Notes under the pieces: model-generated | Seen by the model: only the letters and a program-made list of their open reading frames with translations | Told to the model about the DNA's origin: nothing | Databases searched by the model: none | Shown: one piece after another, positions 4,830-63,540 of the stretch | How positions within the stretch are numbered: position 1 is the stretch's first letter | How the letters are laid out: each line of letters opens with the position of its first letter | Position numbers and translations under genes: made by a program | Origin: Christensenella sp. UBA7703 | Lineage (GTDB): Bacteria; Bacillota; Clostridia; Christensenellales; CAG-138 | NCBI GenBank assembly: GCA_002482505.1 | Contig: DLGD01000028.1 | Coordinates: forward strand, 3,682-67,681 | Length of the DNA: 64,000 bases | Reading direction: 5' to 3'

Positions 4830-4835
4830 GCAGTT

Positions 4836-5590
<755 letters not shown>

Positions 5591-5594
<4 letters not shown>

Positions 5595-6139: not shown

Positions 6140-6174
6140 AAAAATCTTTTCCAAACAATAAAGCGAGACGAACA

Positions 6175-6214
6175 AAAAGCGCGCTCCGTAATAGAGTGCG
6201 CTTCATTTGGTTTT
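6175..6214. terminator. Intrinsic terminator between convergent operons
   Basis: Stem aaagcgcgctc / gagtgcgcttt (one G-U pair) followed by T-rich cttcatttggtttt. Confidence 0.5.
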
Positions 6215-6244
6215 GGTGATTTGATTGGAAGAAACTGGGCTATG

Positions 6245-6961: not shown

Positions 6962-6979
6962 TCCGCGTACACCTTATAC

Positions 6980-7011
6980 GAAAAATGTCAATCACGCAGA
7001 CGCGCGATTGA
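6980..7011 (-). terminator. Intrinsic terminator after the glycosyltransferase gene
   Basis: Minus-strand hairpin gtcaatcgcgc / gcgtgattgac followed by ATTTTT. Confidence 0.55.
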
Positions 7012-7102
7012 CACCAGTATAGCAGATCATTGTATTTTTACGCGAGATAGAACAATAATTTAAAACAAAATAGTTTAATTTGTCGAAATCTGTAAGGCGC
7101 TG

Positions 7103-8206: not shown

Positions 8207-8267
8207 TTCGGTTTTCCTCCCATCCCCATGTGAGAAAAATCGTGGATACTGTGTAGATTGCGAGGGC

Positions 8268-44194: not shown

Positions 44195-44230
44195 TCAGCG
44201 AAACATAGATTCGAAAGGAGGCTTTGGCCG

Positions 44231-45412: not shown

Positions 45413-45493
45413 CGATTAAACCGTGCAGCAGGCAGTATTCTGTTGCGCGCGAAAAACGGCTTCACATAAACACGCTGGAGGAACGAGACACAC

Positions 45494-45997
45494 ATGCAGC
45501 CATCTTTTGACTACCGCGCGGTGGACGAAATCCTTTCCCTGTACGGGAAAAAGGAATCGAATATCATCGCCATCCTGCAGGACGTGCAGGAGCGCTACCA
45601 CTATCTGCCGCGCGAGGTGTTCCCTTATCTCGCAAGCGCGCTTGGCGTCAGCGAAGCGAGGCTCTTCTCGGTTGCAACGTTTTACGAGAATTTTTCACTG
45701 GAAGCCAAGGGCAGGTTCGTGATTCGCGTCTGCGACGGAACCGCCTGCCACGTCCGCAAATCGATCCCGATTTTGGAACGCTTGCGTAAGGAACTGGGGC
45801 TCTCTGTCGAGAAGAAGACCACACCCGACGGCGGGTTCACGGTCGAGACCGTCTCCTGCCTCGGCGCTTGCGGATTGGCGCCCGTCATCACGGTCAACGA
45901 GCAGGTCTATCCTGCCATGACGCCGGACAAGGCAAGCGAACTCATCGCGTCCCTGCGGGAGCAGCTGGTGGCGGAGAAAGCGGGTGAACGCGTATGA
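45494..45997 (+). CDS. hydC: NuoE-like [2Fe-2S] subunit of electron-bifurcating hydrogenase
   Basis: VCDGTACHVRK ... SCLGACGLAP Cys motifs. 167 aa. Confidence 0.85.
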   Translation: MQPSFDYRAVDEILSLYGKKESNIIAILQDVQERYHYLPREVFPYLASALGVSEARLFSVATFYENFSLEAKGRFVIRVCDGTACHVRKSIPILERLRKELGLSVEKKTTPDGGFTVETVSCLGACGLAPVITVNEQVYPAMTPDKASELIASLREQLVAEKAGERV

Positions 45998-47874
45998 ACA
46001 AACTAAATAACAGAAGCGAACTGATCGCGCTTCGAAAAGAATGCGCGGGCGCGCTGCAACTCGAAACGAAGCGTGTGCTCGTCTGTGCGGGCACGGGCTG
46101 TGTCTCCAGCGGGTCGATGCAGATTTTCGAGCGGCTGAAATCCCTGATGGAAGAGAGCAATATCCCCGTTTCGGTGGAACTCGCGCACGAGCCGCACGGT
46201 GAAAGCGTCGGCCTAAAGGAATGCGGCTGCCACGGTTTTTGCGAGATGGGGCCGCTGGTGCGCATCGAACCGCAGGGTTGGCTTTACACCAAGACCAGGC
46301 TGGAGGACTGCGAAGAGATCGTGGGGCGCACGGTTCTGGGCGGCGAGCGGATTGAACGCCTCGCATTCCAGAAGGACGGCGCAGCCTATCCGAAACAGGA
46401 CGAAATCCCGTTTTATCAGAAGCAAACCCGCCTCGTGCTGGAGCACTGCGGGCAGATTGACGCAACCAGTATCCGCGAGTATCTCGGCTTTGGCGGCTAT
46501 GCGGCGCTCGAAACCGCGCTCTTTGACCGGACGCCGGATGACGTGATCGACGAGATCATAAAAAGCAATCTGCGCGGGCGCGGCGGCGGCGGATTTCCCG
46601 CCGGGCGCAAATGGGCGCAGGTGCGCCGCCAGACGGAGCCGGTGAAATACATCGTCTGCAATGGCGACGAGGGAGACCCAGGCGCGTTTATGGACAGAAG
46701 CGTGATGGAAGGCGACCCGCACCGCATGCTTGAGGGCATGATGATCGCGGGGTTGGCTTGCGGCGCGCAGGAGGGATATATCTACGTCCGCGCGGAGTAT
46801 CCGCTCGCGGTCAAGCGGCTTCGCCGCGCGATTGCGCAGGCGGAGGAGTTGGGCTTGCTCGGCGACAATATCCTCGGCACGGAGTTTTGCTTTACGCTGC
46901 ACATTGCGCGCGGCGCGGGCGCATTCGTCTGCGGCGAGGGCAGCGCGCTGACCGCCTCCATCGAGGGCAAACGCGGCATGCCGCGGGTCAAACCCCCGCG
47001 CACCGTGGAACACGGCCTGTTTGACAAACCGACCGTGCTCAACAATGTCGAAACCTTCGCCAACGTGCCGCTGATCATCACGCGCGGCGCGGACTGGTAC
47101 AAATCCATCGGGCCCGAAAACAGCCCCGGCACAAAGGCCTTTGCGCTCACGGGCAACATCGTCAATACGGGGCTCATCGAGGTGCCGATGGGTACCACGC
47201 TAAGAGAAGTCATATTCGACATTGGCGGCGGCGTGCGCGGCGGGAAGGCGTTCAAGGCCGTGCAGATCGGCGGCCCTTCCGGCGGCTGCCTGACGGCGGA
47301 CGACCTCGACCTGCCGCTGGATTTCGATTCGCTTAAAAAAGCAGGCGCGATGATCGGCTCCGGTGGGCTGGTGGTCATGGACGAAGACACCTGTATGGTG
47401 GAAGTCGCGCGGTTCTTCATGCACTTTACCCAGAACGAATCCTGCGGAAAATGCGTGCCCTGCCGCGAGGGAACCAAGCGCATGCTCGCGATTCTGGAGC
47501 GCATTGTCGAGGGCAAGGGCGAGGAAGGCGACATCGAGCTGCTGCTGGAGCTTGCGGATACCATCACGGCGACCGCGCTCTGCGGCCTCGGCAAATCCGC
47601 CGCGTCGCCGGTGGTTAGCACGATCAGGAGCTTCCGCGCGGAATATGAGGCGCATATCCGGGAGAAGCGCTGCCCGGCAGGCGAATGCCAGAAGCTCAAG
47701 CGTATCTGGATCGATCCCGTGCTCTGCAAGGGCTGCTCCAAGTGCGCCAAAGCCTGCCCGGTGAATGCGATTACGGGGCAGATCAAACAGCCGTTCTCCA
47801 TCGATTTGTCCCAGTGCATCCGGTGCGAGTCCTGCATTGCAACCTGCGCATTCCACGCGATTTTGGAGGGATAA
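45994..47874 (+). CDS. hydB: NuoF-like FMN/NAD(H)-binding subunit of electron-bifurcating hydrogenase
   Basis: GRGGGGFPAGRKW, ESCGKCVPCREG and two C-terminal CxxCxxCxxxCP motifs. N-terminal thioredoxin-like 2Fe-2S module. Confidence 0.9.
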   Translation: MNKLNNRSELIALRKECAGALQLETKRVLVCAGTGCVSSGSMQIFERLKSLMEESNIPVSVELAHEPHGESVGLKECGCHGFCEMGPLVRIEPQGWLYTKTRLEDCEEIVGRTVLGGERIERLAFQKDGAAYPKQDEIPFYQKQTRLVLEHCGQIDATSIREYLGFGGYAALETALFDRTPDDVIDEIIKSNLRGRGGGGFPAGRKWAQVRRQTEPVKYIVCNGDEGDPGAFMDRSVMEGDPHRMLEGMMIAGLACGAQEGYIYVRAEYPLAVKRLRRAIAQAEELGLLGDNILGTEFCFTLHIARGAGAFVCGEGSALTASIEGKRGMPRVKPPRTVEHGLFDKPTVLNNVETFANVPLIITRGADWYKSIGPENSPGTKAFALTGNIVNTGLIEVPMGTTLREVIFDIGGGVRGGKAFKAVQIGGPSGGCLTADDLDLPLDFDSLKKAGAMIGSGGLVVMDEDTCMVEVARFFMHFTQNESCGKCVPCREGTKRMLAILERIVEGKGEEGDIELLLELADTITATALCGLGKSAASPVVSTIRSFRAEYEAHIREKRCPAGECQKLKRIWIDPVLCKGCSKCAKACPVNAITGQIKQPFSIDLSQCIRCESCIATCAFHAILEG

Positions 47875-47877
47875 CAC

Positions 47878-49581
47878 ATGGAACAACGGGAATTTATGAC
47901 GGTGGACGGCATCCCGGTTGAGCTCAACGGAGAAAAGAACCTGCTCGAGCTCATCCGGAAAGCTGGCATCAAGCTGCCGACATTTTGCTATCATTCCGAG
48001 CTTTCCGTCTATGGCGCGTGCCGCATGTGCATGGTGGAGACCGAGCGCGGCGGGCTGGAAGCTGCCTGCTCCACGCCGCCGAAAGCCGGCATGGTGATCA
48101 AGACCAATACGGAGAGATTGCGCCGCTATCGCAAAAATATTCTGGAGTTGCTGCTTGCAAACCACTGCCGAGACTGCACCACCTGCAGCAACAACGGCAA
48201 ATGCAAGCTGCAAGACCTTGCGATGCGGTTTAATATCGAAGGCGTTCGCTTCCCGAACACCGCTCCGCAGCCGCAAAAGGACGATTCTTCGCTCTGCATC
48301 GCGCGGGACGCGAGCAAATGCATCCTCTGCGGCGACTGTGTGCGCATGTGCAACGAGGTGCAGTCCGTCGGCGCGATCGATTTTGCTTATCGCGGCTCCA
48401 AGATGGAGATCAGCACCGCGTTTGGCATGCCGATTGCGCAATCCCCCTGCGTGGGCTGCGGGCAGTGCGCGGCGGTTTGCCCGACGGGAGCCATCGTCGT
48501 ACGGGACAACGCAAACCGCGTCTGGCGCGCGCTGGATGATCGCGGCGTGAAGGTTACGGCGCAGATTGCTCCGGCGGTGCGCGTGGCGCTCGGTCGCGAG
48601 ATGGGCCTGCGCGAAGGAGAAAACAGCATGGGCAAGATCGTCGCCGCGCTGCATCGCATGGGCTTTGACGAGGTGTATGACACCTCCACCGGCGCGGACC
48701 TGACCGTGCTGGAGGAGAGCGAGGAGCTGCTTTCGCATCTGGAGAGCGGAGCTGCGCTTCCGCTGTTCACCTCCTGCTGCCCGGCGTGGGTGCAGTTCTG
48801 TGAGAAATCGCATCCGGAGTTGTTGCCGCATGTCTCCACCTGCCGCTCGCCGATGCAGATGTTTGCCTCGGTCATCAAGGAGCAGGAGAAGACCTCGTCA
48901 AGGCGACAGTTTCATGTTGCGGTGATGCCCTGCACGGCGAAAAAGTTTGAAGCCGCGCGGGAAGAATTCTGCGTAGAAGGCGCGCCAAATGTGGATGCGG
49001 TGATCACCACGCAGGAGCTCATCCGCATGATCAAGGAATCCGGCGTGGTGTTTGAAGACCTGGAGCCGGAAGCGCTGGATATGCCCTTTGGCATGACCTC
49101 CGGCGCGGGCGTGATCTTCGGCGTGACAGGCGGCGTGACCGAGGCGGTGCTCCGCAGGCTCGCATCCGATAAATCGCGCGGGGGGCTATACACCGCGGCG
49201 CTCACCGGCGTACGCGGCATGAAAAGCGTGAAGGAAGCGCGCGTGCCGTATCTTGATCGCGAGGTACGCATTGCAGTCGTCAGCGGGCTGAGCAACGCGG
49301 AATCGCTGATTCAGAAGATTCTCTCTGGCGAAGAGCGCTATGATTTCGTCGAGGTGATGGCTTGCCCGGGCGGCTGCGTCAGCGGCGCGGGGCAACCCTA
49401 CAGCGCATCCATCGGCAAGGCGGAGCGCGGCGAAGGACTCTATGCCGTGGATCGCGTTTCCAGCATCAAGCGCTCAGAGGAGAATTCGCTTGTCCAGTCG
49501 CTCTATGGAGATGTGCTCAAAGGACGCGTGCACGAGCTGCTGCATGTAGACTATGTGAAGGACGGAGGGCACAACGCATGA
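47878..49581 (+). CDS. hydA: [FeFe]-hydrogenase catalytic subunit
   Basis: Canonical H-cluster motifs TSCCPAWV, MPCTAKKFE, EVMACPGGCVSGAGQP. N-terminal 2Fe-2S and 4Fe-4S modules. Confidence 0.9.
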   Translation: MEQREFMTVDGIPVELNGEKNLLELIRKAGIKLPTFCYHSELSVYGACRMCMVETERGGLEAACSTPPKAGMVIKTNTERLRRYRKNILELLLANHCRDCTTCSNNGKCKLQDLAMRFNIEGVRFPNTAPQPQKDDSSLCIARDASKCILCGDCVRMCNEVQSVGAIDFAYRGSKMEISTAFGMPIAQSPCVGCGQCAAVCPTGAIVVRDNANRVWRALDDRGVKVTAQIAPAVRVALGREMGLREGENSMGKIVAALHRMGFDEVYDTSTGADLTVLEESEELLSHLESGAALPLFTSCCPAWVQFCEKSHPELLPHVSTCRSPMQMFASVIKEQEKTSSRRQFHVAVMPCTAKKFEAAREEFCVEGAPNVDAVITTQELIRMIKESGVVFEDLEPEALDMPFGMTSGAGVIFGVTGGVTEAVLRRLASDKSRGGLYTAALTGVRGMKSVKEARVPYLDREVRIAVVSGLSNAESLIQKILSGEERYDFVEVMACPGGCVSGAGQPYSASIGKAERGEGLYAVDRVSSIKRSEENSLVQSLYGDVLKGRVHELLHVDYVKDGGHNA

Positions 49582-51920: not shown

Positions 51921-51949
51921 TTGACTTCGAAAATGTATCATGGTATATT
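51921..51949 (+). promoter_or_regulatory. Promoter of the sugar-ABC / RLP operon
   Basis: TTGACT (51921-51926), 17 nt ending in TGG, TATATT (51944-51949). This leaves a ~330-nt A-rich leader before the SBP start. Confidence 0.55.
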
Positions 51950-52287: not shown

Positions 52288-53451
52288 ATGAAGAAGGCTC
52301 TATCCATTCTGCTCGTGCTGATCATGGCTTTTAGCGCCGTGGCCTGCACCGCAGCCGCACCCGTGGCTCCCGCTGCGGAAGCAACCACCGCACCCGAAGC
52401 GGCAGCCACCGAAGCCGCACCGGAAGCAACCGAAGCGCCCGCGAAGGCTGACTTCTCCCAGAACCAGAACGTGGCCCGCGCATCCGAAGCCGCAAAGACC
52501 ACCATTGAACTGCCCGTGACCGGCATCGGCTCGACCATCACGACGGACGTGAAGGCCAAGGGCGACTACACGATCTGCGTGATGACGAAGAACTCCACAA
52601 ACCCGTATATGAACGGTATGTGGAAGGGCGCGGAAAAAGCGGCAACCGACCTCGGTATCAAGGTTGTTACGCTGGCTCCGGCACAGCAGGATTCCATCGA
52701 AGAGCAGATTGCGATCATGGAAGCCCAGATTCAGCAGGGCGTGAGCGCATTTGTCATCCATCCTTCGGACTCCAAGGGCATCATGCCCGCGGTTGACGAA
52801 GCAAATGCGGCAGGCATCCCGGTGATCTCCATCGGCACCGCGTCCGCATCTGGCTCCATGATGCGCACCGGCGTGGATTATTATGAAACCGGCGCGGTCG
52901 TTGCCAAGTATCTCTTTGAAAAGATCGGCGGCGAAGGCGGCCTGATCATCCTCGAGGGCCCTCCGGGCGCACAGAATGCGGAAGAGCGCAAAGCCGGCAT
53001 CACCGACCTGCTCGCTTCTTACCCGGGCATCACGCTCATCGACTCGCAGCCCGCGAACTTCAACCGTGCGCAGGGTATGCAGGTCATGGAAAACCTGCTC
53101 CAGCGTGAAGGCGTGAAAGACCAGCTCAAGGTCGTCATCGCCTGCAACGACGAGATGGCGCTCGGCGCAATCCAGGCGCTCAAAGCAGCGGGCATCACCA
53201 ACGTGCTCGTCGGCGGGTTCGACGGCTCTGCCGATGCATCCCAGGCGATCAAGGACGGCGACCTGACGGTGACGTATAACACCGATCCATTCGGCTCCAC
53301 CTACTATGCCATCACGATGCTCGTGAAATACCTTGACGACGGCGCGCTGCCGGAAGAATACTTCATTCCGTTCCCGTCCGAGCGTCACAAGCCGCTGATC
53401 GACTCCAGCAACATCGACGACTATATCAACAACTTTGCCTGGTTTAAATAA
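52288..53451 (+). CDS. Sugar ABC transporter substrate-binding lipoprotein (RbsB/Peripla_BP_4-like)
   Basis: Lipobox AFSAVAC, an Ala/Thr/Glu/Pro-rich linker, then a type I PBP fold (ICVMTKNSTNPYM..., VIACNDEMALGA...). RBS AAAGGAGG. Confidence 0.8.
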   Translation: MKKALSILLVLIMAFSAVACTAAAPVAPAAEATTAPEAAATEAAPEATEAPAKADFSQNQNVARASEAAKTTIELPVTGIGSTITTDVKAKGDYTICVMTKNSTNPYMNGMWKGAEKAATDLGIKVVTLAPAQQDSIEEQIAIMEAQIQQGVSAFVIHPSDSKGIMPAVDEANAAGIPVISIGTASASGSMMRTGVDYYETGAVVAKYLFEKIGGEGGLIILEGPPGAQNAEERKAGITDLLASYPGITLIDSQPANFNRAQGMQVMENLLQREGVKDQLKVVIACNDEMALGAIQALKAAGITNVLVGGFDGSADASQAIKDGDLTVTYNTDPFGSTYYAITMLVKYLDDGALPEEYFIPFPSERHKPLIDSSNIDDYINNFAWFK

Positions 53452-53553
53452 CCAAGCAATAAAAAACGGATTCTGTGCGGGACGGTGGACATCAGCCGCC
53501 GTCCCGCAAGCGACGCAGAGGACGCGTTTGCACACACTTTAGGGGGTTTTTGG

Positions 53554-55068
53554 ATGGAACAGCAACCCATTTTGACCGTTCGTGGCTTGAGCAAGTCGTT
53601 TCCCGGCGTGCGTGCGCTCGACCATGTGGACTTTGACCTGCGCGCAGGCGAAGTGCACGTGCTCGTTGGCGAAAACGGCGCGGGAAAGTCCACGCTCGCC
53701 AAATGCATCCTGGGGATGTATCAGCCGGAGGAAGGCGAAATCGTGCTCCGCGGAGAAAAGCTCTGCTTCTCTTCGCCGAAGGATGGCATTGCCCACGGCA
53801 TCGTCGCGGTGTATCAGGAACTCACGATGGTTCCCTATCTCAACGCCGCACAGAATATCTTTCTCAACCGCGAGCCGCTGATCCGCGGCACGGGGATGAT
53901 CAATCATCGAAACATGCAGCGCGATGCAAAGGCGATTCTAGCCACGCTCGGCTGTGCAGATATCGACACCAGGATTCCGGTCAAGCTGCTGGACGTAGCG
54001 CAGCAGCAGATGATCGAGATCGCAAAAGCGCTCTCCTTCAAGCCGCAGATTATCGTGCTCGACGAGCCGACCGCTTCGCTGTCCGAACGCGAGATTGAGC
54101 CGTTTTTTCAGCAGGTGCTCAAGCTTCGGGAACAGGGCATCGGCATTATCTATGTTTCCCACCGCATGCAGGAATACCACCGCATCGGGGATCGTATCAC
54201 CGTGCTGCGGGACGGAAAATTCATCCGCACGCTGGATGTAGGCGAGCTCAACGACGAAGAGCTGGTCAATCTTATGGTCGGCAGAGATATCTCCCAGGTC
54301 TATGTGCGCACGAAGAATGCACACAGCGGAGAAGCGCTGCGCATCGAGGACCTGTGCGATAAAAAAGGCCGTGTCAACGGCTGTTCCATCACGCTCAACC
54401 GCGGCGAAATCGTCGGCATCGCCGGCCTCGTCGGCGCGGGGCGCACGGAGATGGCGCGGTTGATCTTCGGCATCGACAAACCGGCAAGCGGAAAGATCTA
54501 TCTCCACGGCAAGGATGTCACCGGAAAGTCGCCCTCCTATGTCGTCAAAAACGGGCTCGGACTTTTGCCGGAAGATCGCAAACGCTATGGCCTTGCGCTC
54601 AAGAGTTCGATTGCGTGGAATACCGTCGCCGTCAGCCTCAAGAGCGTGTTTCCCAGCGGAATTGTCTCCGAGCGAAAGAACAAAAAGATCGCGGAGGACT
54701 ATGTCAAGCTGCTCAAAACAAGCACGCCGGATGTCGTCCGCCCGGTTTCCCAACTCTCCGGCGGAAACCAGCAGAAGGTCGTCATCGCGAAATGGCTCAG
54801 CGCTAAGTCGGACGTGATCATCTTCGACGAACCCACGCGCGGCATCGACGTTGGCGCAAAGATGGAGATCTATGCGCTGATGGATCGCCTCGCTTCCGAA
54901 GGCAAGGCAATCCTGATGATCTCTTCGGAGTTACAGGAAGTAATCGGCATGTCCGATCGCATCTATATCATGAAGGACGGCACAATCACGGGCGAAGTGA
55001 CGCGCAACCAGTGCTCTCAGGAAGAGATCGGCCGCGCGATGGTGCTCGGCAAGGAGGTGCTCGCATGA
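53554..55068 (+). CDS. Sugar ABC transporter ATP-binding protein (duplicated ABC, RbsA-like)
   Basis: Walker A GENGAGKST, a second degenerate domain and the signature LSGGNQQKV. 504 aa. Confidence 0.9.
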   Translation: MEQQPILTVRGLSKSFPGVRALDHVDFDLRAGEVHVLVGENGAGKSTLAKCILGMYQPEEGEIVLRGEKLCFSSPKDGIAHGIVAVYQELTMVPYLNAAQNIFLNREPLIRGTGMINHRNMQRDAKAILATLGCADIDTRIPVKLLDVAQQQMIEIAKALSFKPQIIVLDEPTASLSEREIEPFFQQVLKLREQGIGIIYVSHRMQEYHRIGDRITVLRDGKFIRTLDVGELNDEELVNLMVGRDISQVYVRTKNAHSGEALRIEDLCDKKGRVNGCSITLNRGEIVGIAGLVGAGRTEMARLIFGIDKPASGKIYLHGKDVTGKSPSYVVKNGLGLLPEDRKRYGLALKSSIAWNTVAVSLKSVFPSGIVSERKNKKIAEDYVKLLKTSTPDVVRPVSQLSGGNQQKVVIAKWLSAKSDVIIFDEPTRGIDVGAKMEIYALMDRLASEGKAILMISSELQEVIGMSDRIYIMKDGTITGEVTRNQCSQEEIGRAMVLGKEVLA

Positions 55069-56015
55069 CGGGTCAAATGCTCAAAAAGCGGGTTGCAGCT
55101 CTTCCGCCCGCCGTGTGGATGATCGCCGTGATGCTCATCTTCTACGGCATTAACACCAAGAATTACTTCACCGCGAGCAACTTCATCTCGATCCTCGTGC
55201 AGGCGGCTCCGCTGTTTGTCGTCGCTTGCGGGCAGACGATCATCGTGCTCATGCAGGGCACAGATCTCTCGCTCGGTGCGTCGCTGAATATGATGACGGT
55301 CGTTTGGGTCGTGCTGATGCAGAAAAGCCTGCCGATCGGCGTCGCGCTCCCGCTTGCGATGGGCGCTTCGATCTTCGCGGGCTACCTCAACGGCCTCATC
55401 GTCGCCAAGATGAAGCTGCCACCGTTTATCGCAACGCTCGGCATGCAAAACATCCTCAACTCGGTCGCGCTGGTAACGTCCAACGGCTCCTCGGTCTATC
55501 ACGAGCATGCGATTTATAAAATCGTCGCAAAGAGCAGTTTCCTCGGCGTACCGTACATCCTCTGGATCGCGATTGGCTGCTTTTTCCTCACGATGGTTTT
55601 GCTAAAATATACGCGCTTCGGCGCGCGCGTCATCAGCATGGGCGGCAACCCCGAATCGCTGAAGGTCGCGGGATACAGCCCGGATCTTGCGACGATTCAG
55701 GCGTTTACCTATACCGGCTTTATGACGGCGGTTGCGGGATTTATGCTCGCCTGCCGCGTGGAGAGCGGCAACCCCATCGTCGGCAACGGGTTTGAGTTCA
55801 ACTCCGTTGCGGCGGTTCTCCTCGGCGGAACCAGCATGCGCGAAGGGCGCGGCGGCGTCGGCGGAACGGTGTTCGGCGTGTTGTTGATCCAGATTTTGAA
55901 AAACGGGCTGGTCATGATGAACGTTTCGTCGATCTATCAGACCGCCATCATCGGCATCGTGGTGCTCTTTGCCATCATGCTGGACGCATACATCAAACGC
56001 AGGCAGGAGGAGTAG
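55065..56015 (+). CDS. Sugar ABC transporter permease (RbsC-like) 1
   Basis: Start overlaps the ATPase stop. ~10 helices with GTDLSLGA and LGGTSMREGRGGV motifs. Confidence 0.85.
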   Translation: MTGQMLKKRVAALPPAVWMIAVMLIFYGINTKNYFTASNFISILVQAAPLFVVACGQTIIVLMQGTDLSLGASLNMMTVVWVVLMQKSLPIGVALPLAMGASIFAGYLNGLIVAKMKLPPFIATLGMQNILNSVALVTSNGSSVYHEHAIYKIVAKSSFLGVPYILWIAIGCFFLTMVLLKYTRFGARVISMGGNPESLKVAGYSPDLATIQAFTYTGFMTAVAGFMLACRVESGNPIVGNGFEFNSVAAVLLGGTSMREGRGGVGGTVFGVLLIQILKNGLVMMNVSSIYQTAIIGIVVLFAIMLDAYIKRRQEE

Positions 56016-56024
56016 GGGGAAACT

Positions 56025-56990
56025 ATGATGAAGAAAATCGGAACCTATCTTCTGCAATCCAAGTACGCAATCAGCGTGTCTGTGCTCGTGTTTGTCGTCA
56101 TCGCTTCGAGCCTGATCACCCGCTCCTTTTTGACAGCGGATAATCTGATCACCGTGCTGCGGCAAACGAGCGTGCTGTTTATCCTGAGTTCCGGCCTGAC
56201 CGCCGTGGTACTCACGGGCGGGATCGATCTTTCGATCAACAACAGTGCGGCGCTGGTTGGCTGCATCGTGGCGCAGCTTTTGCTGCTGGGTGTGTCGATT
56301 CCGGTGGTCATCCTCGCCGGAATCCTCGTCGGCATCGTCATCGGCGTGTTCAACGGTCTCTTGGTCGGCATTCTCAAGCTGCCGCCGTTTGTCGCAACCT
56401 ATGGCACAAACATGGTCGTGCTTGGCATCTCCACCATCGTCATGCAAGGCAAAGTCATTTACGACCTGCCGCGCAACTTTACCCCGATCGGTGTAGGATA
56501 CATCGGTATTCTGCCGATTCCGGTGATCATCGCGATCGTGCTGACCGGAATTCTCTACTTCGTGCTGCAAAAGACCACGCTCGGCAGAAACATCTATATG
56601 CTCGGCAGCAATGCCTACGCAGCCAAGTACAGCGCGGCAAGGAGTGTCCGGGATACCATCACGGCCTATGCCATCTGCGGCGTGACCGCTGCCATCGGCG
56701 GCATTGTGCTCACCGCGCGGCTCAACGCGGCGGACGCGAACATGGGCAACTCCTATGGCTTGCAGATCGTCGCCGCGGTGGTCATGGGCGGCACCTCGCT
56801 GCTCGGCGGCGAAGGCGGAATCTTCGGCACGGTGATCGGCGCGCTGGTGCTTACGATCATCATGAACGTCATCAACGTCATCGGCGTATCGAGCTATCTG
56901 CAATCGATGGCGGTCGGCATCGTGATTATCCTCATGGTGTGGCTGGACATCTTCACAAGAAGCAAACGCGAAAAACTTTCGCGCGCATAA
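56025..56990 (+). CDS. Sugar ABC transporter permease (RbsC-like) 2
   Basis: GGIDLSINN and MGGTSLLGGEGGI motifs. 9 nt after permease 1. Confidence 0.85.
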   Translation: MMKKIGTYLLQSKYAISVSVLVFVVIASSLITRSFLTADNLITVLRQTSVLFILSSGLTAVVLTGGIDLSINNSAALVGCIVAQLLLLGVSIPVVILAGILVGIVIGVFNGLLVGILKLPPFVATYGTNMVVLGISTIVMQGKVIYDLPRNFTPIGVGYIGILPIPVIIAIVLTGILYFVLQKTTLGRNIYMLGSNAYAAKYSAARSVRDTITAYAICGVTAAIGGIVLTARLNAADANMGNSYGLQIVAAVVMGGTSLLGGEGGIFGTVIGALVLTIIMNVINVIGVSSYLQSMAVGIVIILMVWLDIFTRSKREKLSRA

Positions 56991-57046
56991 TGCCGCTTTC
57001 AGGCACAAAAACGCGATATAACACGGAAAGGTTCGGAGGTTAAACC

Positions 57047-57856
57047 ATGGCAAATTTCACAATTCGGCCCATCAACACGGGCTATGTGCCCACGTATCCC
57101 AAGCAATACCATTATCACCACTCAGTCTATAAGTACATTCCCGGTATTTCGGACGAGAAGGAAGCCCTCCCCGTTCTGACCTTCCTCATCGAAGGAGAAG
57201 GCAAGAAAATCCTCGTCGATACCGGTATGGCATGGACCGAACGCGCGGATAAATACCATCATCCGGGTTCCTGGCAGGGTGAAGGCGAAGCGATCTATGA
57301 ACAGTTCGCCAAGCTTGGCGTGGCATGCGAAGAGGTGGACTACGTGCTCTTCACACATATGCACTGGGACCATATCTTCTATATGGACAAGTTCAAGAAC
57401 GCGACGTTCATCGCGCATGAGCGCGAATATGCCTTTGCGCTGGATCCGATCCCGCTGTATTACAAGAGCTATGAGCATCCCTTCCTTGGCGTGAAGCGTC
57501 CGTTTGAGGGGATCAAGGTGGATACCTGCAAAGGCGAAACCGAAATCGTCCCCGGCGTTCGTTCGTTTGAAACGTTCGGGCATTCCCCGGGACATATGTC
57601 CATCGAGGTGGATACACTGGATGGCAAATATATCCTCGGCGGAGACTCCGCCTTCCGCATGGCGAACTTCAATGCAATCCCCGAAATCGGCTACAACGTG
57701 ACCCCTCCGGGCAGATTTGCCAACATCATCGAATGCTGGAGAAGCCTTGAGATCACCAAAGAGCGCGCGGAGAGCCTGGACCACATCCTGCTCACGCACG
57801 AAACGAACCTCATGAACCGCATGGAACAAACGCCTGTGTTTGGCCTAGGCAAATAA
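57047..57856 (+). CDS. MBL-fold hydrolase, N-acyl-homoserine-lactonase-like (candidate sugar-lactone hydrolase)
   Basis: HxHxDH motif FTHMHWDH, later GHSPGH. 269 aa. Confidence 0.7.
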   Translation: MANFTIRPINTGYVPTYPKQYHYHHSVYKYIPGISDEKEALPVLTFLIEGEGKKILVDTGMAWTERADKYHHPGSWQGEGEAIYEQFAKLGVACEEVDYVLFTHMHWDHIFYMDKFKNATFIAHEREYAFALDPIPLYYKSYEHPFLGVKRPFEGIKVDTCKGETEIVPGVRSFETFGHSPGHMSIEVDTLDGKYILGGDSAFRMANFNAIPEIGYNVTPPGRFANIIECWRSLEITKERAESLDHILLTHETNLMNRMEQTPVFGLGK

Positions 57857-58006
57857 GCGACTTCGGATCAAAGCCGATCGTTTGGCGGAATCATCAGCCT
57901 AACGATGGGGCAAACCATCATTCTTCATGAGCGGGAGCGCGGGCTCGCCTGCGCTCCCGGCTCCTCCCTTCACAACAAACCGAATGTCTCGGCAAAGGAT
58001 GCATTC

Positions 58007-59257
58007 ATGAATAGCAAAACCACCGTCAAAAGAAGGACCGTCGCCATCATCGCCTGTGCCGACACGAAGAAGGCGGAGATGGAATTTCTCCGCGCGCTTC
58101 TGGCGCGAGAGGGATTCGGCGTGCTCACAATCGATCTTTCCACCCAAGGCGGGTATACCTATGAGGCAAACGTCACCCCGCGCGAGATCGCGATGGCGGG
58201 CGGCAGCACGATTGAACACGTTCGCCTGTCCGGCCGTGCGGAGGCGATCTCCGTGATGGAAGCGGGCGTGGTCAAGATCGTCAGCAGCCTCTCTATCACC
58301 GGCAATATCGACGGCGCGCTGGGCATCGGGGGCTTACAAAACTCCCGCATGGCATCCGCCGCAATGCGCGCGCTGCCCGTCGGTGTGCCAAAGCTGATTC
58401 TCTCCACCGTCGCCTGCGGCAACCGCCCGTTTGAGCTGCTGGTTGGGGACAAGGACATCACCGTTATGCCGTCTGTTGCGGACATCGCGGGGCTCAACCC
58501 CCTGACGGAGACGGTTTTGACCAACGCCGCCGCCGCTGTGATGGGCATGGTGCAATATGGCGGCAAAACGCTCTCCGCCGATCAGCCAATGATTGCGGCA
58601 AGCATGATGGGCGCGACCAACGACGGCGTGGTCGGCGCGGTTCGCCTGCTGGAGCTGGCTGGCAAGAGCGTGGTCACGTTTCATTCCACCGGAGTTGGCG
58701 GCAGATGCCTCGAACAACTGGTTTTGGACGGTATGATGCAGGCAAGCCTTGATCTTTCGCCGCACGAGATCATCTCCCAGGATGTGTTTGGATTTGGATT
58801 TTCTGCGGGTGCGGCAAACAGGCTTTGTGCCGCGGCAAAGAAGGGGATTTCGAGCGTGGTTGCGCCTGGAGGTATGGACTTTGTCGATGTTTCGGCAAAG
58901 GATTTCTTCGCGGGCATCCTCGGTGACCCGGCGGCACGCAAATATGTGCTCCACAACAGCGAGATTGCGCATGTCAAACTCACGCCGGAGGAAGCAGCGC
59001 GCGGCGCGGCTATTTTCGTTGAGCGGCTCAACCGCCACACGGGGAAACTGAGTGTCATTCTGCCGCTGCAAGGATTGCGGAGCGACACGCGGCAAGGGCA
59101 GAAACTCTATGATCCCGCGGTGGATCAGGCGATTTTCGACGTGATCCGCAAAGGATTGCGAACGGACATCCGCCTTGTCGAGCTGGACGCGCATTTCTTT
59201 GATGAGGCATTCAGTGTGTGCGCGTTTGAAGAGATGATGCGCCTGCTGCAAGATTAA
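58007..59257 (+). CDS. UPF0261 / Tm-1-like ATP-binding-domain protein, function unknown
   Basis: N-terminal VAIIACADTKKAEMEFLRALLAREGFGVLTIDLS pattern of the UPF0261 family. 416 aa. Start ATG 58007 (AAAGGA upstream). Confidence 0.6.
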   Translation: MNSKTTVKRRTVAIIACADTKKAEMEFLRALLAREGFGVLTIDLSTQGGYTYEANVTPREIAMAGGSTIEHVRLSGRAEAISVMEAGVVKIVSSLSITGNIDGALGIGGLQNSRMASAAMRALPVGVPKLILSTVACGNRPFELLVGDKDITVMPSVADIAGLNPLTETVLTNAAAAVMGMVQYGGKTLSADQPMIAASMMGATNDGVVGAVRLLELAGKSVVTFHSTGVGGRCLEQLVLDGMMQASLDLSPHEIISQDVFGFGFSAGAANRLCAAAKKGISSVVAPGGMDFVDVSAKDFFAGILGDPAARKYVLHNSEIAHVKLTPEEAARGAAIFVERLNRHTGKLSVILPLQGLRSDTRQGQKLYDPAVDQAIFDVIRKGLRTDIRLVELDAHFFDEAFSVCAFEEMMRLLQD

Positions 59258-59270
59258 TTTAGATCAAAAC

Positions 59271-59335
59271 GTTCTGAATACAGAACGGGATCAATAGAAT
59301 ACGCGATTATAGAACACATAATTACAGAACACATG
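59271..59335. repeat. Inverted repeat plus two tandem 15-bp direct repeats in the AT-rich gap before the RLP gene
   Basis: GTTCTG-aata-CAGAAC (59271-59286). ATTATAGAACACATA (59306-59320) immediately followed by ATTACAGAACACATG (59321-59335). Confidence 0.6.
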
Positions 59336-59351
59336 ATTAAGGAAAAGAAAC

Positions 59352-60596
59352 ATGTTTTTCGATCTTCCGTTTGACAACGAAGAGAACATTCAATCCGGCG
59401 ATTTTGTGATCGCAACCTACCTCGTCAGCGGCATCAGCGAGGAGGACGCGCTCGCCCGCGCAGGCCGGTTTGCAATCGGGCAGACGGTCGGCACCTGGGT
59501 GGAACTGCCGGGGATCACGCGCGCAATGGTGGAAGGCTATCAGGCGCGGGTGCTCTCGTTGGAGCTCATTCCCGCAGAGCCCGTTTGCGCGGTGCTTCGC
59601 GTGGCGTTCCCCGCGCATAATCTGCCGAGCTTTGCAATGCTTCAAACAGCTCTGGTCGGTAACGACGTCTCCACCGCGCTTTGCGTCAAGTTGCTGGACG
59701 TTTCGCTCACGCAAACCGCGCTGAAGCGCTTTGGCGGACCTATCCAGTCCGTGACCGGCGTGCGTGGGCTTACGGGGGTGCCGGATCGTCCGCTGGTGCT
59801 CAACATGATCAAACCCTGCATCGGCTACAGCGCCGAAGAGGGCGCAAAGCTCTTTTTCGAGAGCGCGATGGGCGGGGTAGACCTCATCAAGGACGACGAG
59901 GTGCTGGCCGAGGTTCCGATTCTTTCGGTTGCGCAGCGTGTTCGCGCATATGCGAGAGAGGCCGATCGCGTGCGGGAAGCACGCGGGACTGCGCCGGTCT
60001 ATATCCCAAACATCACCGGAAGACCCAAATATATGCGCGAGACGGCGCGGATGCTCGTGGAAGAGGGCGCAAAGATGGCGATGGTCAACTTTGTCACCAC
60101 GGGGTTGGACTCGCTTGCGGAGCTGACGCAGGAGTTCGGCGAGAAGCTCGCGTTTCTTGCGCACTATGCAGGTGCGGGGATGATGAGCTCCACGTGGCTT
60201 GGCTATGCGAACCCCGTTTTACTCGGCACGCTGGCGCGGCTTGCGGGCGCGGACATGGTGATGACTATGTACCCCGGCGCACCGGGCAGCCGAGGCTATC
60301 TGGAGTTTTTGAAAACCGTACAGAAACAGAAGTTACCGCTGGGGCAGATCAAACCGATCTTCACGATGGTTGGCGGCGGGGTGACCCCGCTCAACCTTTC
60401 CGCTGTGATTCGCGAGCTCGGCAGCGATGTTGTCCTCGGCGTTGGCGGCGCGATTCAGGGGCACCCGATGGGGGCAAGAAACGGCGCAATCGCGACCATG
60501 GCGGCGGTGAATGCCGCGCATGCGGGCGTGCCGCTGGAAAAAGCGGCAAAGGATTGCCCGCCGCTGGCGGCAGTGCTCGGCGGCTACAGCAAATAG
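59352..60596 (+). CDS. RuBisCO large-subunit-like protein (form IV RLP)
   Basis: By-eye alignment to RuBisCO: MIKPCIGYS...GGVDLIKDDE (K175, K201, D203, E204 kept; K177 is Cys) and GVGGAIQGHPMG (GGxxxGHP). 414 aa. Confidence 0.85.
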   Translation: MFFDLPFDNEENIQSGDFVIATYLVSGISEEDALARAGRFAIGQTVGTWVELPGITRAMVEGYQARVLSLELIPAEPVCAVLRVAFPAHNLPSFAMLQTALVGNDVSTALCVKLLDVSLTQTALKRFGGPIQSVTGVRGLTGVPDRPLVLNMIKPCIGYSAEEGAKLFFESAMGGVDLIKDDEVLAEVPILSVAQRVRAYAREADRVREARGTAPVYIPNITGRPKYMRETARMLVEEGAKMAMVNFVTTGLDSLAELTQEFGEKLAFLAHYAGAGMMSSTWLGYANPVLLGTLARLAGADMVMTMYPGAPGSRGYLEFLKTVQKQKLPLGQIKPIFTMVGGGVTPLNLSAVIRELGSDVVLGVGGAIQGHPMGARNGAIATMAAVNAAHAGVPLEKAAKDCPPLAAVLGGYSK

Positions 60597-60631
60597 TTTA
60601 CACAACGAAGCACAAAGGCAGGAGACAGATT

Positions 60632-61096
60632 ATGGCAAAACCAATCGTCATCGGCTGCGACAACGCGGCGGTAGAACTCAAGCACACGCTCTGCGGCGTG
60701 CTCAAGCAGCTCAACATTCCGTTTGAGGATGTCGGCGTGGAAAGCGAGACGGATCAGACGCTCTATCCTGAAGTGGCGGAGCGCGTTTGCGAAAGCATCA
60801 TCGCAAGCGATTATCAAAAAGAGGGCATCATCCTCTGCGGAACAGGCATCGGCATGGCGATGACCGCGAATAAGTTCCCCGGTATCTTCGCCGCCGTGTG
60901 TCACGATTCGTTCTCGGCGGAGCGTTCGCGCCTCTCCAACAACGGAAACGTGATCTGCATGGGTGCGCGTGTGATTGGGCCGGAGCTTGCGAAAAAGATC
61001 TTGCGCGAATGGCTCACGCTGGAGTATATCCCCGGTGGCAGCTCGCAGCCCAAGGTGGACTGCATGCGCAGCATCGACGGCGCAAGCCGGAAGTAA
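60632..61096 (+). CDS. rpiB: RpiB/LacA/LacB-family sugar-phosphate isomerase
   Basis: IVIGCDNAAVELK and ILCGTGIGMAMTANK (catalytic Cys). 154 aa. Confidence 0.85.
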   Translation: MAKPIVIGCDNAAVELKHTLCGVLKQLNIPFEDVGVESETDQTLYPEVAERVCESIIASDYQKEGIILCGTGIGMAMTANKFPGIFAAVCHDSFSAERSRLSNNGNVICMGARVIGPELAKKILREWLTLEYIPGGSSQPKVDCMRSIDGASRK

Positions 61097-61130
61097 CCAC
61101 AACAACGACGAGCGGAAGGCAGAGAACACG

Positions 61131-61907
61131 ATGAAACCCCTACTCATGGGCACCAATCTCAAGATGTACAAGACCGCCGGGCAGACGCAGGCGTATTTGA
61201 GCGCGCTGCAGACGCTCACGCAGGATCTGCGCGCGCAAACCACGCTGTTTGTGATTCCGTCCTATCCTGCGCTGGAGCGCGCGGCAAACACGGTCAAGGA
61301 CAAAGCGATTCTCCTCGGCGCACAAAACATGCATCCGGAAGAGCAAGGCCAGTTCACGGGCGAGGTTTCCCCGCTGATGCTACAGGAGTTTGGTCTGGAC
61401 ATTGTGGAAATCGGGCACAGCGAACGCAGGCATGTCTTCGGCGAAACGGACGAGCAGGAGAACAAAAAGGTAGTCAGCGCGCTGAATCACGGCTTTACCG
61501 CGCTGCTCTGCGTTGGCGAGACGGCGGAGCAAAAGGCGGCGGGGATCGCGGACGAAGTGCTCGCCATGCAACTCAAGATCGGCCTTCGCGGCGTGCTGCC
61601 CGAGCAGGCGGCGCGCATTTGGGTGGCTTACGAGCCGGTTTGGGCAATCGGCGTCAACGGCGTGCCAGCCCCGGCGGACTATGTCAAGGAGCGACATGCA
61701 AGCATCCGGCGTATCCTCGGCGAACTTTTTTTACTCACGGAAATCCCCGTACTCTACGGCGGCAGCGTAAACCCGCAGAACGCGGAGGAGCTGATCGTCC
61801 AGCCGAACGTGGACGGGCTGTTTACCGGGCGCGCGGCCTGGGATGCGGAAAACTTTAACGCGCTGATTCGGCAGGTGCTGCCGCTCTGGCAGCGCAAGCA
61901 AGCTTAA
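61131..61907 (+). CDS. Triose-phosphate-isomerase-family protein (paralogue, probably a tetrulose-phosphate isomerase)
   Basis: TIM catalytic motifs GTNLKMYK (Lys), IGHSERR (His), AYEPVWAIG (Glu), YGGSV. Not in a gap-pgk-tpi context. Confidence 0.8.
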   Translation: MKPLLMGTNLKMYKTAGQTQAYLSALQTLTQDLRAQTTLFVIPSYPALERAANTVKDKAILLGAQNMHPEEQGQFTGEVSPLMLQEFGLDIVEIGHSERRHVFGETDEQENKKVVSALNHGFTALLCVGETAEQKAAGIADEVLAMQLKIGLRGVLPEQAARIWVAYEPVWAIGVNGVPAPADYVKERHASIRRILGELFLLTEIPVLYGGSVNPQNAEELIVQPNVDGLFTGRAAWDAENFNALIRQVLPLWQRKQA

Positions 61908-61991
61908 GACATCCGCAAAAGAAAATAGAAAGCCAAACATATAGTACGGCTGCTTCGGCAATGTGGTGAGTTTTTAGACACTAAGAACAGA

Positions 61992-62627
61992 ATGGAAAGA
62001 GAAACACGTATGGAACAGGCGAAAAAACGCGGCGAACTCTACGCGCTCCTCAACATGGCGGCACAGCGTGCCTATGCGCGCGGCATCCAGACCGGCAGCG
62101 GCGGCAACCTCTCCGCGCGGGACGTGGAGGCGGGGCAAATGATCGTGAAAGCCAGCGGCGGCTCGTTTGCGGACTGCACGAGCGAAGGCGAAGGCTTTGT
62201 CGTGACCAAGCTGGGCGGAGAACGCATCTGCGAAACCGACCCGAAGCCCACCCGTGAAGTGGTGCTCCACGGCATGCTCTATACGCTTTTGCCAATGATC
62301 GGCGGCGTGATGCATTGCCACAGCCCGTGGGCGGTTGCCTATGCCTATCGGCATGATGTGCTGCCGATGACCACGCAGCATGTCAAGCTCAAACTCGGAC
62401 ACGACATTCCGATTCTCAACGTCGATTCTCCGATGCTGCTTGCTGAGCACGTTCCCCTTGTGCGCCAGTTGTTTGAAGAAAACCCGAAGCTGACAGCGTT
62501 TATTCTGCGTGGGCACGGCGTGGTTGCAATCGGGAAGGACATCATCGAAGCGGAGCACACCGCAGAACTCGTGGAAGAAACCGCGCAGATTGCTTCCCTG
62601 CGCGAAATTCTGGATCACAAAGCGTGA
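61992..62627 (+). CDS. Class II aldolase/adducin-family protein (aldolase, epimerase or decarboxylase)
   Basis: GSGGNLSARD, HCHSPWAVAYA, ILRGHGVVAIGKDIIEAEHTAELVEETA motifs. ATG 62010 is an alternative start. Confidence 0.8.
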   Translation: MERETRMEQAKKRGELYALLNMAAQRAYARGIQTGSGGNLSARDVEAGQMIVKASGGSFADCTSEGEGFVVTKLGGERICETDPKPTREVVLHGMLYTLLPMIGGVMHCHSPWAVAYAYRHDVLPMTTQHVKLKLGHDIPILNVDSPMLLAEHVPLVRQLFEENPKLTAFILRGHGVVAIGKDIIEAEHTAELVEETAQIASLREILDHKA

Positions 62628-62710
62628 ATCGCAATCCTCCGAATGCCCGTTTATGCGGGATACGGCCTGTTTTGCGAAAAAATCGATCGATTGCGTGATT
62701 CACGCGGAAA

Positions 62711-62736
62711 CGGATTGTATGCTATAATACAATCCG
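62711..62736 (+). promoter_or_regulatory. Perfect 10-bp palindrome (GntR-type operator) overlapping a TATAAT box
   Basis: CGGATTGTAT-gctata-ATACAATCCG. TATAAT at 62723-62728 lies inside it, 26 nt before the regulator's start region. Confidence 0.6.
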
Positions 62737-62761
62737 TAATCATCCTTTGGGAGGAAGCAGT

Positions 62762-63478
62762 ATGCCGAAGAAACCGGATCTGCCCGTTGCGAAAATTCAA
62801 CTGAACAACAAGCGCATGAGCGAGCTGATCTGCGAGCAGATATCGGACTGGATCATGGACGGTACGCTGGAGGCAGGCCAGCGCATCAGCGAGGACGAAC
62901 TTGCGGAGCGTTTCGGCGTGAGCCGCATGCCCGTGCGAGAGGCGGTGCGTATGCTCTGCGCAAAGGGACTGATGCAGAGCATCCCCTACGTCGGCAGCTC
63001 GGTGCGAAAACTCTCCAACGACGAGATTCGTGAGGTCTATCTGCTCAGAAGCGTACTGGAACCGCTCGCAGGGCGCATCTCCGCGAGCCAGATTACGCCG
63101 GACGAGCTCAAGCAATTGCTCGCCTTGCAGGAACAGCTGGAGGCATACGGGCAAAAACCGATCAGCCTGGAGACCAGCAAACAGATGTATCAACTCAACC
63201 GCGAGTTTCACATGAGCATGTATCGTCCCTGCCGGATGGATCGCCTGATTCAAATGATCGATTCCCTTTGGGACAGCATCGCCTATCTTCGTATGCGCAC
63301 CGCGTTCAATCCAAAGTATCCGGAGCAGATGCAGGAAGAGCACAGGCGCTATATCTCTTTGCTGGAACAGAAAAAAGGGGACGACCTTGCCCGCCACCTG
63401 GAAGAGAACCTGCGGCGGCATGTCGGCTCGTTTCCCGCAAACGGTTCTGCCGTAAGCGCGGAAGAAAAGGTGAAATAA
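62762..63478 (+). CDS. GntR-family regulator with FCD domain
   Basis: ELAERFGVSRMPVREAVRMLCAKGLMQSIPYVGSSV HTH plus an FCD-type helical domain. ATG 62762 preceded by GGGAGGA. Confidence 0.85.
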   Translation: MPKKPDLPVAKIQLNNKRMSELICEQISDWIMDGTLEAGQRISEDELAERFGVSRMPVREAVRMLCAKGLMQSIPYVGSSVRKLSNDEIREVYLLRSVLEPLAGRISASQITPDELKQLLALQEQLEAYGQKPISLETSKQMYQLNREFHMSMYRPCRMDRLIQMIDSLWDSIAYLRMRTAFNPKYPEQMQEEHRRYISLLEQKKGDDLARHLEENLRRHVGSFPANGSAVSAEEKVK

Positions 63479-63508
63479 TGCCTATCAATTAAACAACACC
63501 AAAACACA

Positions 63509-63540
63509 AGCCGTCCGGCGAACCGGACGGCTTTTTCTTT
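63509..63540 (+). terminator. Intrinsic terminator closing the RLP operon
   Basis: agccgtccgg-cgaa-ccggacggct followed by TTTTTCTTTCT. Confidence 0.8.

Follow-up and report, generated by a model that had tools for sequence, protein, structure and literature searches.

Within a 64,000-nucleotide stretch of the genome of Christensenella sp. UBA7703 (contig DLGD01000028.1; hereafter the window, in whose coordinates all positions are given), eleven genes were delineated from open reading frames and Pfam searches, all on the plus strand and spanning 52288–63478. Among these, a protein of the UPF0261 family (58007–59257; PF06792 and PF23189), here proposed to be an ATP-dependent kinase, precedes a form-IV RuBisCO-like protein (RLP; 59352–60596; PF00016, 2e-34). 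As stated in the original prediction for this DNA, UPF0261 has 416 residues and its gene lies 94 nt ahead of the RLP gene, the stop codon ending at 59257 and the RLP starting with ATG at 59352. A longer frame from 57905 was discarded in favor of the ATG at 58007, as AAGGA precedes the latter and the family models align from approximately residue 10. Upstream of the pair are the genes of an ATP-binding cassette (ABC) importer, namely an RbsB-type (Peripla_BP_4) solute-binding lipoprotein (52288–53451; PF13407, 2e-63; below every NCBIfam equivalog cut-off), an ATPase with two ATP-binding cassettes (53485–55068; PF00005 in two stretches, 2.7e-51; true start probably ∼53551) and two permeases (55011–56015, PF02653, 9.3e-29, true start probably ∼55065; and 56025–56990, PF02653, 1.6e-30), followed by a metallo-β-lactamase (MBL)-fold, lactonase-like hydrolase (57047–57856; PF00753, 1.6e-20) with an HMHWDH motif, whose nearest solved structures are AiiA-type lactonases. 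Downstream of the RLP are an RpiB/LacAB-family sugar-phosphate isomerase (60623–61096; PF02502, 6.2e-47; DerI-like, with 143 bits where the cut-off is 240), a TIM-family isomerase paralog (61131–61907; PF00121, 2.1e-73), a class II aldolase/adducin-family enzyme, i.e., an aldolase, epimerase, or decarboxylase (61992–62627; PF00596, 8.3e-34), and a GntR/FCD-family regulator (62747–63478; PF00392 and PF07729), which has its own promoter-like site (62699–62728) and is kept in related clusters. The class II aldolase-family protein matched the NCBIfam models for L-ribulose-5-phosphate 4-epimerase (86 bits) and OtnC, the decarboxylase acting on 3-oxo-tetronate-4-phosphate (66 bits), weakly, and its nearest solved structures are AraD (1K0W) and 6VOQ. 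A promoter-like site on the plus strand lies ahead of the operon (51921–51949; TTGACT-17-TATATT, 10 of 12 matches plus a TG extension; a consensus match only), and a bidirectional terminator-like hairpin stands at the cluster end (63508–63533; 11-bp stem with 8 GC pairs, T-runs on both strands). RNA-seq support for cotranscription was sought, and only DNA metagenome runs (bioanode, wastewater, sludge) contained the locus. The closest relatives of the cluster, with proteins 82 to 98% identical, are found in metagenome-assembled genomes of Christensenellaceae and Eubacteriales.

Profile searches placed the 416-residue protein in UPF0261, with both domains above the curated cut-offs of 27: the N-terminal domain matched PF06792 (5.5e-52, 176.7 bits) and the C-terminal domain PF23189 (1.2e-53, 182.1 bits), while the NCBIfam model NF002674 (PRK02399 group) was matched at 366 bits against a cut-off of 335. 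The reaction of this family had been taken as unassigned, and the operon as a route to a first functional assignment; both statements are out of date, as MarK (Saro_1862; described in 2025), a UPF0261 homodimer from Novosphingobium aromaticivorans, phosphorylates acetovanillone and related aromatics with ATP, yields ADP as a stoichiometric product, and works without any barrel partner (PMC12624787). The window UPF0261 aligned with MarK (PDB 9MPY; 180 bits) over residues 11 to 407, covering both domains, and with Tm-1 (3WRY) at 144 bits. The D19-T20-K21 motif aligns with D14-T15-K16 of MarK, with K21 at the ATP-contact lysine position represented by K20 of Tm-1 and by the E16K substitution of MarK, and is kept in every outgroup and in 58 of 60 clade members, the two remaining rows having gaps at these columns. 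Introduction of E16K raised the rate of MarK ∼1600-fold (PMC12624787); wild-type MarK has Glu at this position, and in the window UPF0261 the activating lysine is native. H226 and H316 are equivalent to the acceptor-site residues H219 and H304 of MarK, of which H219 bonds the acceptor oxygen (PMC12624787), and both are invariant in 67 aligned sequences; G195 and F283 of MarK likewise have counterparts in G202 and F292. Like MarK, then, the window UPF0261 is a two-domain protein over its full length, encoded by a stand-alone gene with no PF09370 partner.

The MarK-type aromatic (acetovanillone) pocket, comprising T196, I285, and H348 with a hydrophobic face, was absent from the window UPF0261. 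T196 is replaced by A203 (A, I, or V across the clade), I285 by D294 (in each of 20 RLP-adjacent members), and H348 by D360 (D or N across the clade), while S346 is replaced by a clade-specific arginine, R358, in 58 of 60 members. Judged by these residues, the window UPF0261 is not to be classed as an aromatic kinase, and its polar, charged pocket with the new arginine would suit an anionic sugar rather than an aromatic substrate. Signature residues of the clade in the window protein are Q111, N112, P155, N205, T228, H322, R340, and R358. The genomic settings differ as well, MarK serving aromatic catabolism alongside a carboxylase and a phosphatase, in contrast to the importer, lactonase, RLP, and isomerases of the window.

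The expectation that the operon would hold no other kinase-like gene was borne out, as Pfam profile searches revealed no second kinase domain among its eleven genes. Profile searches of the source genome (94.6% complete) recovered one UPF0261 and one RLP, and neither PF09370 nor DUF1537 (PF07005). An FGGY kinase encoded ∼8 kb past the operon end, close to the end of the contig, would lend itself to an explanation in which UPF0261 is an ATP-binding regulator or accessory protein (e.g., a sensor, or a factor that helps assemble or activate either the class II aldolase-family enzyme or the RLP), phosphorylation being left to a kinase encoded elsewhere. However, this FGGY kinase is part of a RhaA/RhaD/RhaB rhamnose cluster of its own, which lies beyond the strong terminator and a convergent AlkZ-like gene. 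An accessory role is reminiscent of Tm-1, the best-known family member, which acts by binding another protein through ATP, and of the name “signal transduction” borne by the partner domain of UPF0261, but it accords poorly with the invariant acceptor-site histidines, with the fixed place of UPF0261 among catabolic enzymes across phyla, and with the presence of a dedicated GntR regulator in the cluster; it is considered the least probable of the alternatives weighed here.

The RLP belongs to an uncharacterized clade. The protein database contains at least 764 relatives of it, the 120 best of which are 49 to 97% identical to it, all of them unnamed or automatically named “DK-MTP-1-P enolase.” The nearest named RLP family by score is MtnW/YkrW of Bacillus methionine salvage (PRK09549, 247 bits; structure 2OEK, 160 bits), and its MtnK, dehydratase MtnB, and MtnW bear a formal resemblance to the kinase, class II aldolase-family enzyme, and RLP considered here. 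Identity with MtnW (DK-MTP-1-P enolase) was nonetheless rejected, as the scores fell below the equivalog cut-offs (247 bits against 409 for PRK09549, and 185 against 514) and the cluster contains no mtnK, mtnA, mtnX, or mtnD, having instead a sugar ABC importer, a lactonase, and TIM- and RpiB-family isomerases. The automatic MtnW annotation of the RLP clade is thus almost certainly wrong. The score for OiaX was lower still (108 bits against a cut-off of 700), and the nearest solved structure is the uncharacterized 4NAS. No variation was seen across 121 clade members at K154, K180, D182, E183, or H271 or in either Gly-rich phosphate loop, residues 180 to 183 reading KDDE; based on motif alignment to the form III protein 2CWX and on familiar RuBisCO motifs, we take these residues to correspond to K175, K201, D203, E204, and H294 of spinach numbering. 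K177 is replaced by Cys156 (Cys in 113 of 121 clade members) and R295 by Tyr272, such that the carbamate-Lys/Asp/Glu metal site of a form IV protein is kept and the carboxylase-specific residues are lost. These residues point to an active form IV enzyme that would bind a monophosphorylated, enolizable substrate, and a monophosphorylated substrate would in turn require an upstream kinase.

Gene neighborhoods were compared from both sides of the pair. On long contigs, UPF0261 stood immediately upstream of the RLP in seven of the eight RLP-clade contexts sampled, and the two genes are direct neighbors in 17 species-level genomes, i.e., their adjacency is not due to chance. Among 401 genomes sampled from the same class, the only RLPs at least 45% identical to that of the window were those of genomes G284, G096, and G308, all next to or near UPF0261. 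More distant RLPs (28–39% identical) occurred in genomes without UPF0261, except for one (32%) in G073 that is unlinked to the UPF0261 of that genome. G073 was dropped as an example because its two genes sit on separate contigs with unrelated surroundings and its RLP is a KPK-type homolog. That RuBisCO-family protein (L008, contig C28, 9269–10624) has both lysines (IIKPKMGM) and is unrelated to the UPF0261 clusters; its gene neighbors in this Clostridia genome are a class II aldolase-family gene and acetoin/pyruvate-dehydrogenase-like genes for E1 alpha, E1 beta, and E2. Two architectures were recognized among the RLP-clade contexts: that of the window, with importer, MBL, UPF0261, RLP, RpiB, TIM, class II aldolase-family, and GntR genes; and a shorter one with importer, GntR, a small protein, a tungsten aldehyde:ferredoxin oxidoreductase (AFOR), UPF0261, RLP, and sometimes a URO-D-like protein.

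From the UPF0261 side, 62 loci of the clade were collected by a pattern scan with one genome per GTDB species, and the proteins of the window operon were mapped onto them by tblastn. The MBL gene was immediately upstream of UPF0261 in 53 of the 62 loci. The next gene 3′ of UPF0261 encoded the class II aldolase-family enzyme in 35 and the RLP in 17; an RLP was found within 8 kb in 24 loci and in none of the remaining 38. All of these UPF0261 proteins fell into one clade (SH-aLRT 99%), separate from MarK and from a PF09370-linked homolog. RLP adjacency was distributed over at least three subclades with four inferred changes on the tree, and one large RLP-less subclade retains the RpiB and TIM genes. 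As all ten of the examined genomes with an RLP-less triad contain no RuBisCO-family gene anywhere, the conserved unit consists of MBL, UPF0261, and class II aldolase-family enzyme, into which the RLP is optionally inserted, in most cases together with RpiB and TIM. RLP-less triads adjoin carboxylate transporters (TRAP, TTT, and KdgT), which points to an acidic substrate. Cultured bacteria carry both forms, the triad with an RLP in Faecalicatena contorta and Bariatricus massiliensis and the RLP-less triad in Extibacter muris DSM 28560, Clostridium transplantifaecale, and Blautia sp.

Prior to these comparisons, the RLP had been proposed to replace the TIM barrel that usually accompanies UPF0261. 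The usual partner was correctly named: a phosphoenolpyruvate (PEP)-hydrolase-like TIM barrel (PF09370, TBST) was adjacent in 17 of the 21 genomes of the class sample that carry UPF0261, and 97% of bacterial genomes carrying PF09370 also encode UPF0261 (PMC5028733). In many Clostridia (e.g., G107:C19:207069–211089), a canonical UPF0261 gene was observed between two PF09370 genes, one of ∼280 aa and the other a frame of 400 to 620 aa, and the usual module may be three-part. With Tm-1 and the UPF0261-TBST pairs, in which the TIM barrel is adjacent or fused, the window protein shares the UPF0261 fold and the ATP site; in contrast, its genome has no PF09370, and its fixed neighbors are the MBL and class II aldolase-family genes. 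A partner swap, in which the RLP barrel takes the place of the TIM barrel and a physical UPF0261-RLP complex passes on an ATP-activated intermediate, would be in keeping with the co-evolution of PF09370 and UPF0261, which has been read as interaction (PMC5028733), with the position of UPF0261 almost always directly upstream of the RLP, and with three genomes (that of the window, G000, and G284 and G096) that have the pair and no PF09370. The survey of loci argues otherwise. RLP occurs in only 24 of the 62 same-clade loci, and the related triad loci lacking it, including those of the ten genomes without any RuBisCO-family gene, showed no PF09370 neighbor in the tblastn map; UPF0261 proteins of this clade therefore work without either barrel, as does the MarK homodimer, which is active without one (PMC12624787). 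Moreover, G308 has both barrels: a PF09370 barrel and a canonical-type UPF0261 accompany its RLP-TIM-RpiB module, together with an amidohydrolase. As the RLP module is there coupled to a different UPF0261 subfamily, the link is to the activity of the family. A physical partner swap is accordingly rated as very improbable.

The spacer between the two genes also bears on this question. Its length ranges from 52 to 175 nt across relatives and is not conserved, and therefore provides no sign of translational coupling. The 94-nt spacer of the window (59258–59351) is AT-rich with AGAAC repeats, and its sequence is not conserved even among relatives with 82 to 88% identical proteins, whose spacers (65–175 nt) could not be aligned with it and revealed no conserved element. 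A conserved RNA, operator, or other regulatory element in this spacer is unlikely on this comparison.

In view of the homology to MarK, the kept ATP- and acceptor-site residues, the lack of another kinase in the operon, the absence of DUF1537, and the requirement of the RLP for a phosphate, the window UPF0261 probably serves a conserved catabolic cluster as its ATP-dependent small-molecule kinase. From family membership, the ATP- and acceptor-site residues, the search for other kinases, and the neighborhoods, all computed here, we infer kinase activity on a sugar acid, an order of steps, and a reaction for the RLP, as follows. A sugar lactone or lactonizable acid sugar would be taken in by the ABC importer and its ring opened by the MBL-fold enzyme to give an acid or keto-acid sugar, onto a hydroxyl of which UPF0261 would move the γ-phosphate of ATP. 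The resulting phospho-acid may be processed by the class II aldolase-family enzyme (decarboxylation, epimerization, or cleavage) and, where an RLP is present, could be acted upon by enolization-based isomerization or decarboxylation at the Mg site of the latter. Ketose or tetrose phosphates would then pass into central metabolism via the TIM-like and RpiB-like isomerases. In such a route, the RLP would be a downstream client or optional branch enzyme of the UPF0261 kinase and not its structural partner. The earlier suggestion that UPF0261 hands a phosphorylated substrate to the barrel enzyme is thereby retained in part: UPF0261 is the only plausible supplier in the operon and almost always precedes members of the RLP clade, while the role of partner barrel is not upheld for the RLP.

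Several observations weigh against this assignment. The kinase role is read from sequence, and only DNA runs contain the locus. MarK is the sole characterized member of the family and acts on a phenolic hydroxyl, its identity to the window UPF0261 is modest, and the tree sets the two far apart; in addition, the ATP and acceptor sites of MarK are ∼25 Å apart in the crystal, and the mechanism of the family is not understood. The “lactonase” label of the MBL protein reflects a distant AiiA-type similarity of ∼55 bits, and the cluster has no oxidoreductase, which leaves unexplained where a keto group would come from if the RLP or a decarboxylase needed one. In L072, one of the RLP-clade contexts, UPF0261 was absent within 8 kb. 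Finally, some variants carry AFOR in place of the MBL and class II aldolase-family genes, and their pathway logic may differ.

The proposed route is reminiscent of known acid-sugar pathways in which the kinase step is carried out by DUF1537 proteins, OtnK in the tetronate pathway and OiaK in the D-apiose pathway. Carter et al. (2018) are said to have described an oxidative D-apiose pathway proceeding through ApsD, ApnL, ApnO, OiaK, and the RLPs OiaC/OiaX, and then the isomerases LerI (TIM-like) and DerI (RpiB-like). The window cluster similarly combines an importer, a lactonase, a putative acid-sugar kinase, an RLP that would act on a phospho-keto-acid, and TIM- and RpiB-family isomerases, the latter DerI-like. 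In contrast, its kinase would be UPF0261 rather than DUF1537, its RLP is no ortholog of OiaC/OiaX, the ApsD dehydrogenase and ApnO oxidoisomerase are lacking, and an additional class II aldolase-family enzyme is present. The enzymes of the D-apiose pathway are named in two papers (PMC6302742, PMC13753588) and in NCBIfam. In the tetronate pathway, the kinase OtnK is paired with OtnC, a class II aldolase-family decarboxylase of 3-oxo-tetronate-4-phosphate (PMC13753588). This order of acid-sugar kinase and then class II aldolase-family enzyme resembles the MBL-UPF0261-aldolase triad, and the aldolase-family protein of the window matches YgbL-like structures (6VOQ, 6VOP) besides its weak OtnC match. 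However, none of its scores comes near an equivalog cut-off, the kinase is of another family, and the window cluster has a lactonase and neither an OtnI isomerase nor a dehydrogenase.

A lactonase and a class II aldolase-family enzyme without a dehydrogenase also recall the Ula ascorbate route, which involves an MBL lactonase, UlaG, and a class II aldolase-family epimerase, UlaF. The substrate may be guessed, attractively, to be an ascorbate-like lactone, as both types of enzyme are present and no redox step would be needed. The MBL protein is not UlaG-like, however, showing no match to UlaG-type models of NCBIfam, which counts against this guess. The same finding detracts from a variant of the kinase assignment, in which UPF0261 phosphorylates an enediol or reductone hydroxyl (e.g., of an ascorbate-like lactone or ring-opened keto-acid) to give an enol-phosphate-type intermediate, to be used by either the class II aldolase-family enzyme or the RLP, rather than a primary-alcohol phosphate ester. 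The only known activity of the family is toward an acidic aryl hydroxyl, the phenolic (vinylogous-acid) target of MarK; the usual partner PF09370 has a PEP-hydrolase/PEP-mutase-like fold, and anion transporters adjoin the RLP-less triads, each of which is consistent with phosphorylation of such a hydroxyl. Conversely, the phosphate loops kept in the RLP bind ordinary terminal phosphate esters in RuBisCO and MtnW, and the cluster, unlike the acetovanillone pathway, has no phosphatase to remove an activating phosphate. Taken together, phosphorylation of an enol or acidic hydroxyl is considered unlikely.

Beyond the kinase assignment for UPF0261 itself, we entertain a wider proposal that is possible but on balance doubtful: that UPF0261 constitutes a second family of acid-sugar (or enol/acidic-hydroxyl) kinases replacing DUF1537 in anaerobes; that the RLP clade, with hundreds of members automatically named MtnW, depends on UPF0261 and catalyzes a reaction new to the RuBisCO superfamily; and that the cluster would encode a redox-free route by which a compound of plant or host origin (e.g., an ascorbate-like lactone) is taken from lactone through phospho-acid to tetrose or triose phosphate. 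Full-text literature searches on UPF0261 with RLPs and on RLPs with lactonases turned up no paper on this gene pair, and no account of the pathway or its substrate. While the activity of UPF0261 is known from MarK, the new element would be the use of a different protein family for a kinase step of the acid-sugar type, tied to an uncharacterized RLP clade. The functions of UPF0261/Tm-1 and of RLPs are long-standing gaps, and most RLP clades have no assigned reaction. The locus is one of a large set of conserved clusters in anaerobes of gut, rumen, sludge, and sediment, in which lactonase-like and class II aldolase-family enzymes flank the fixed position of a distinct UPF0261 clade, which almost always serves the RLP clade. 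Assignment of the substrate and reactions would add a new catabolic route, a second activity for UPF0261, and a new reaction for RLPs, besides correcting the widespread “DK-MTP-1-P enolase” misannotation.

Further variation was observed among the related clusters. An AFOR_N/AFOR_C gene and a protein of ∼100 aa lie directly upstream of the UPF0261-RLP pair in L071, L075, and L076 (∼4650–9250 in each) and in L073 (12471–14363); clusters of this type have no MBL or class II aldolase-family gene, and molybdopterin/tungsten cofactor genes are nearby. This arrangement suggests that AFOR provides an aldehyde-to-acid step replacing lactone hydrolysis, or oxidizes an aldehyde product. URO-D/MT2-like genes recur in the clusters, with a URO-D-like gene beside the MBL or RLP gene in L034, L063, L070, and L076, and Faecalicatena contorta (L052, 12573–17181) has two URO-D/MT2-like copies with a CobW-type GTPase and a ∼216-aa frame between them. 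This set resembles a corrinoid methyltransferase (O-demethylase) system, and the natural substrate could be O-methylated. A single metagenomic contig (L078, 1–16221) carries a full RLP-type cluster and, 1 to 2 kb away on the opposite strand, a second, RLP-less triad of MBL, UPF0261, and class II aldolase-family genes, with transaldolase, transketolase, and glycerol-3-phosphate dehydrogenase genes beside both clusters. The copy of the cluster in L005 (G096:C47, 4006–13000) looks decayed or badly assembled, with the ABC ATPase split in two frames, an in-frame TAG inside the RLP, and a truncated TIM gene. Elsewhere in the window (42518–49581), HydC/HydB/HydA-type genes are preceded on the same strand by those of a SpoIIE/PP2C phosphatase and of a PAS-domain, HydS-like sensory FeFe hydrogenase.

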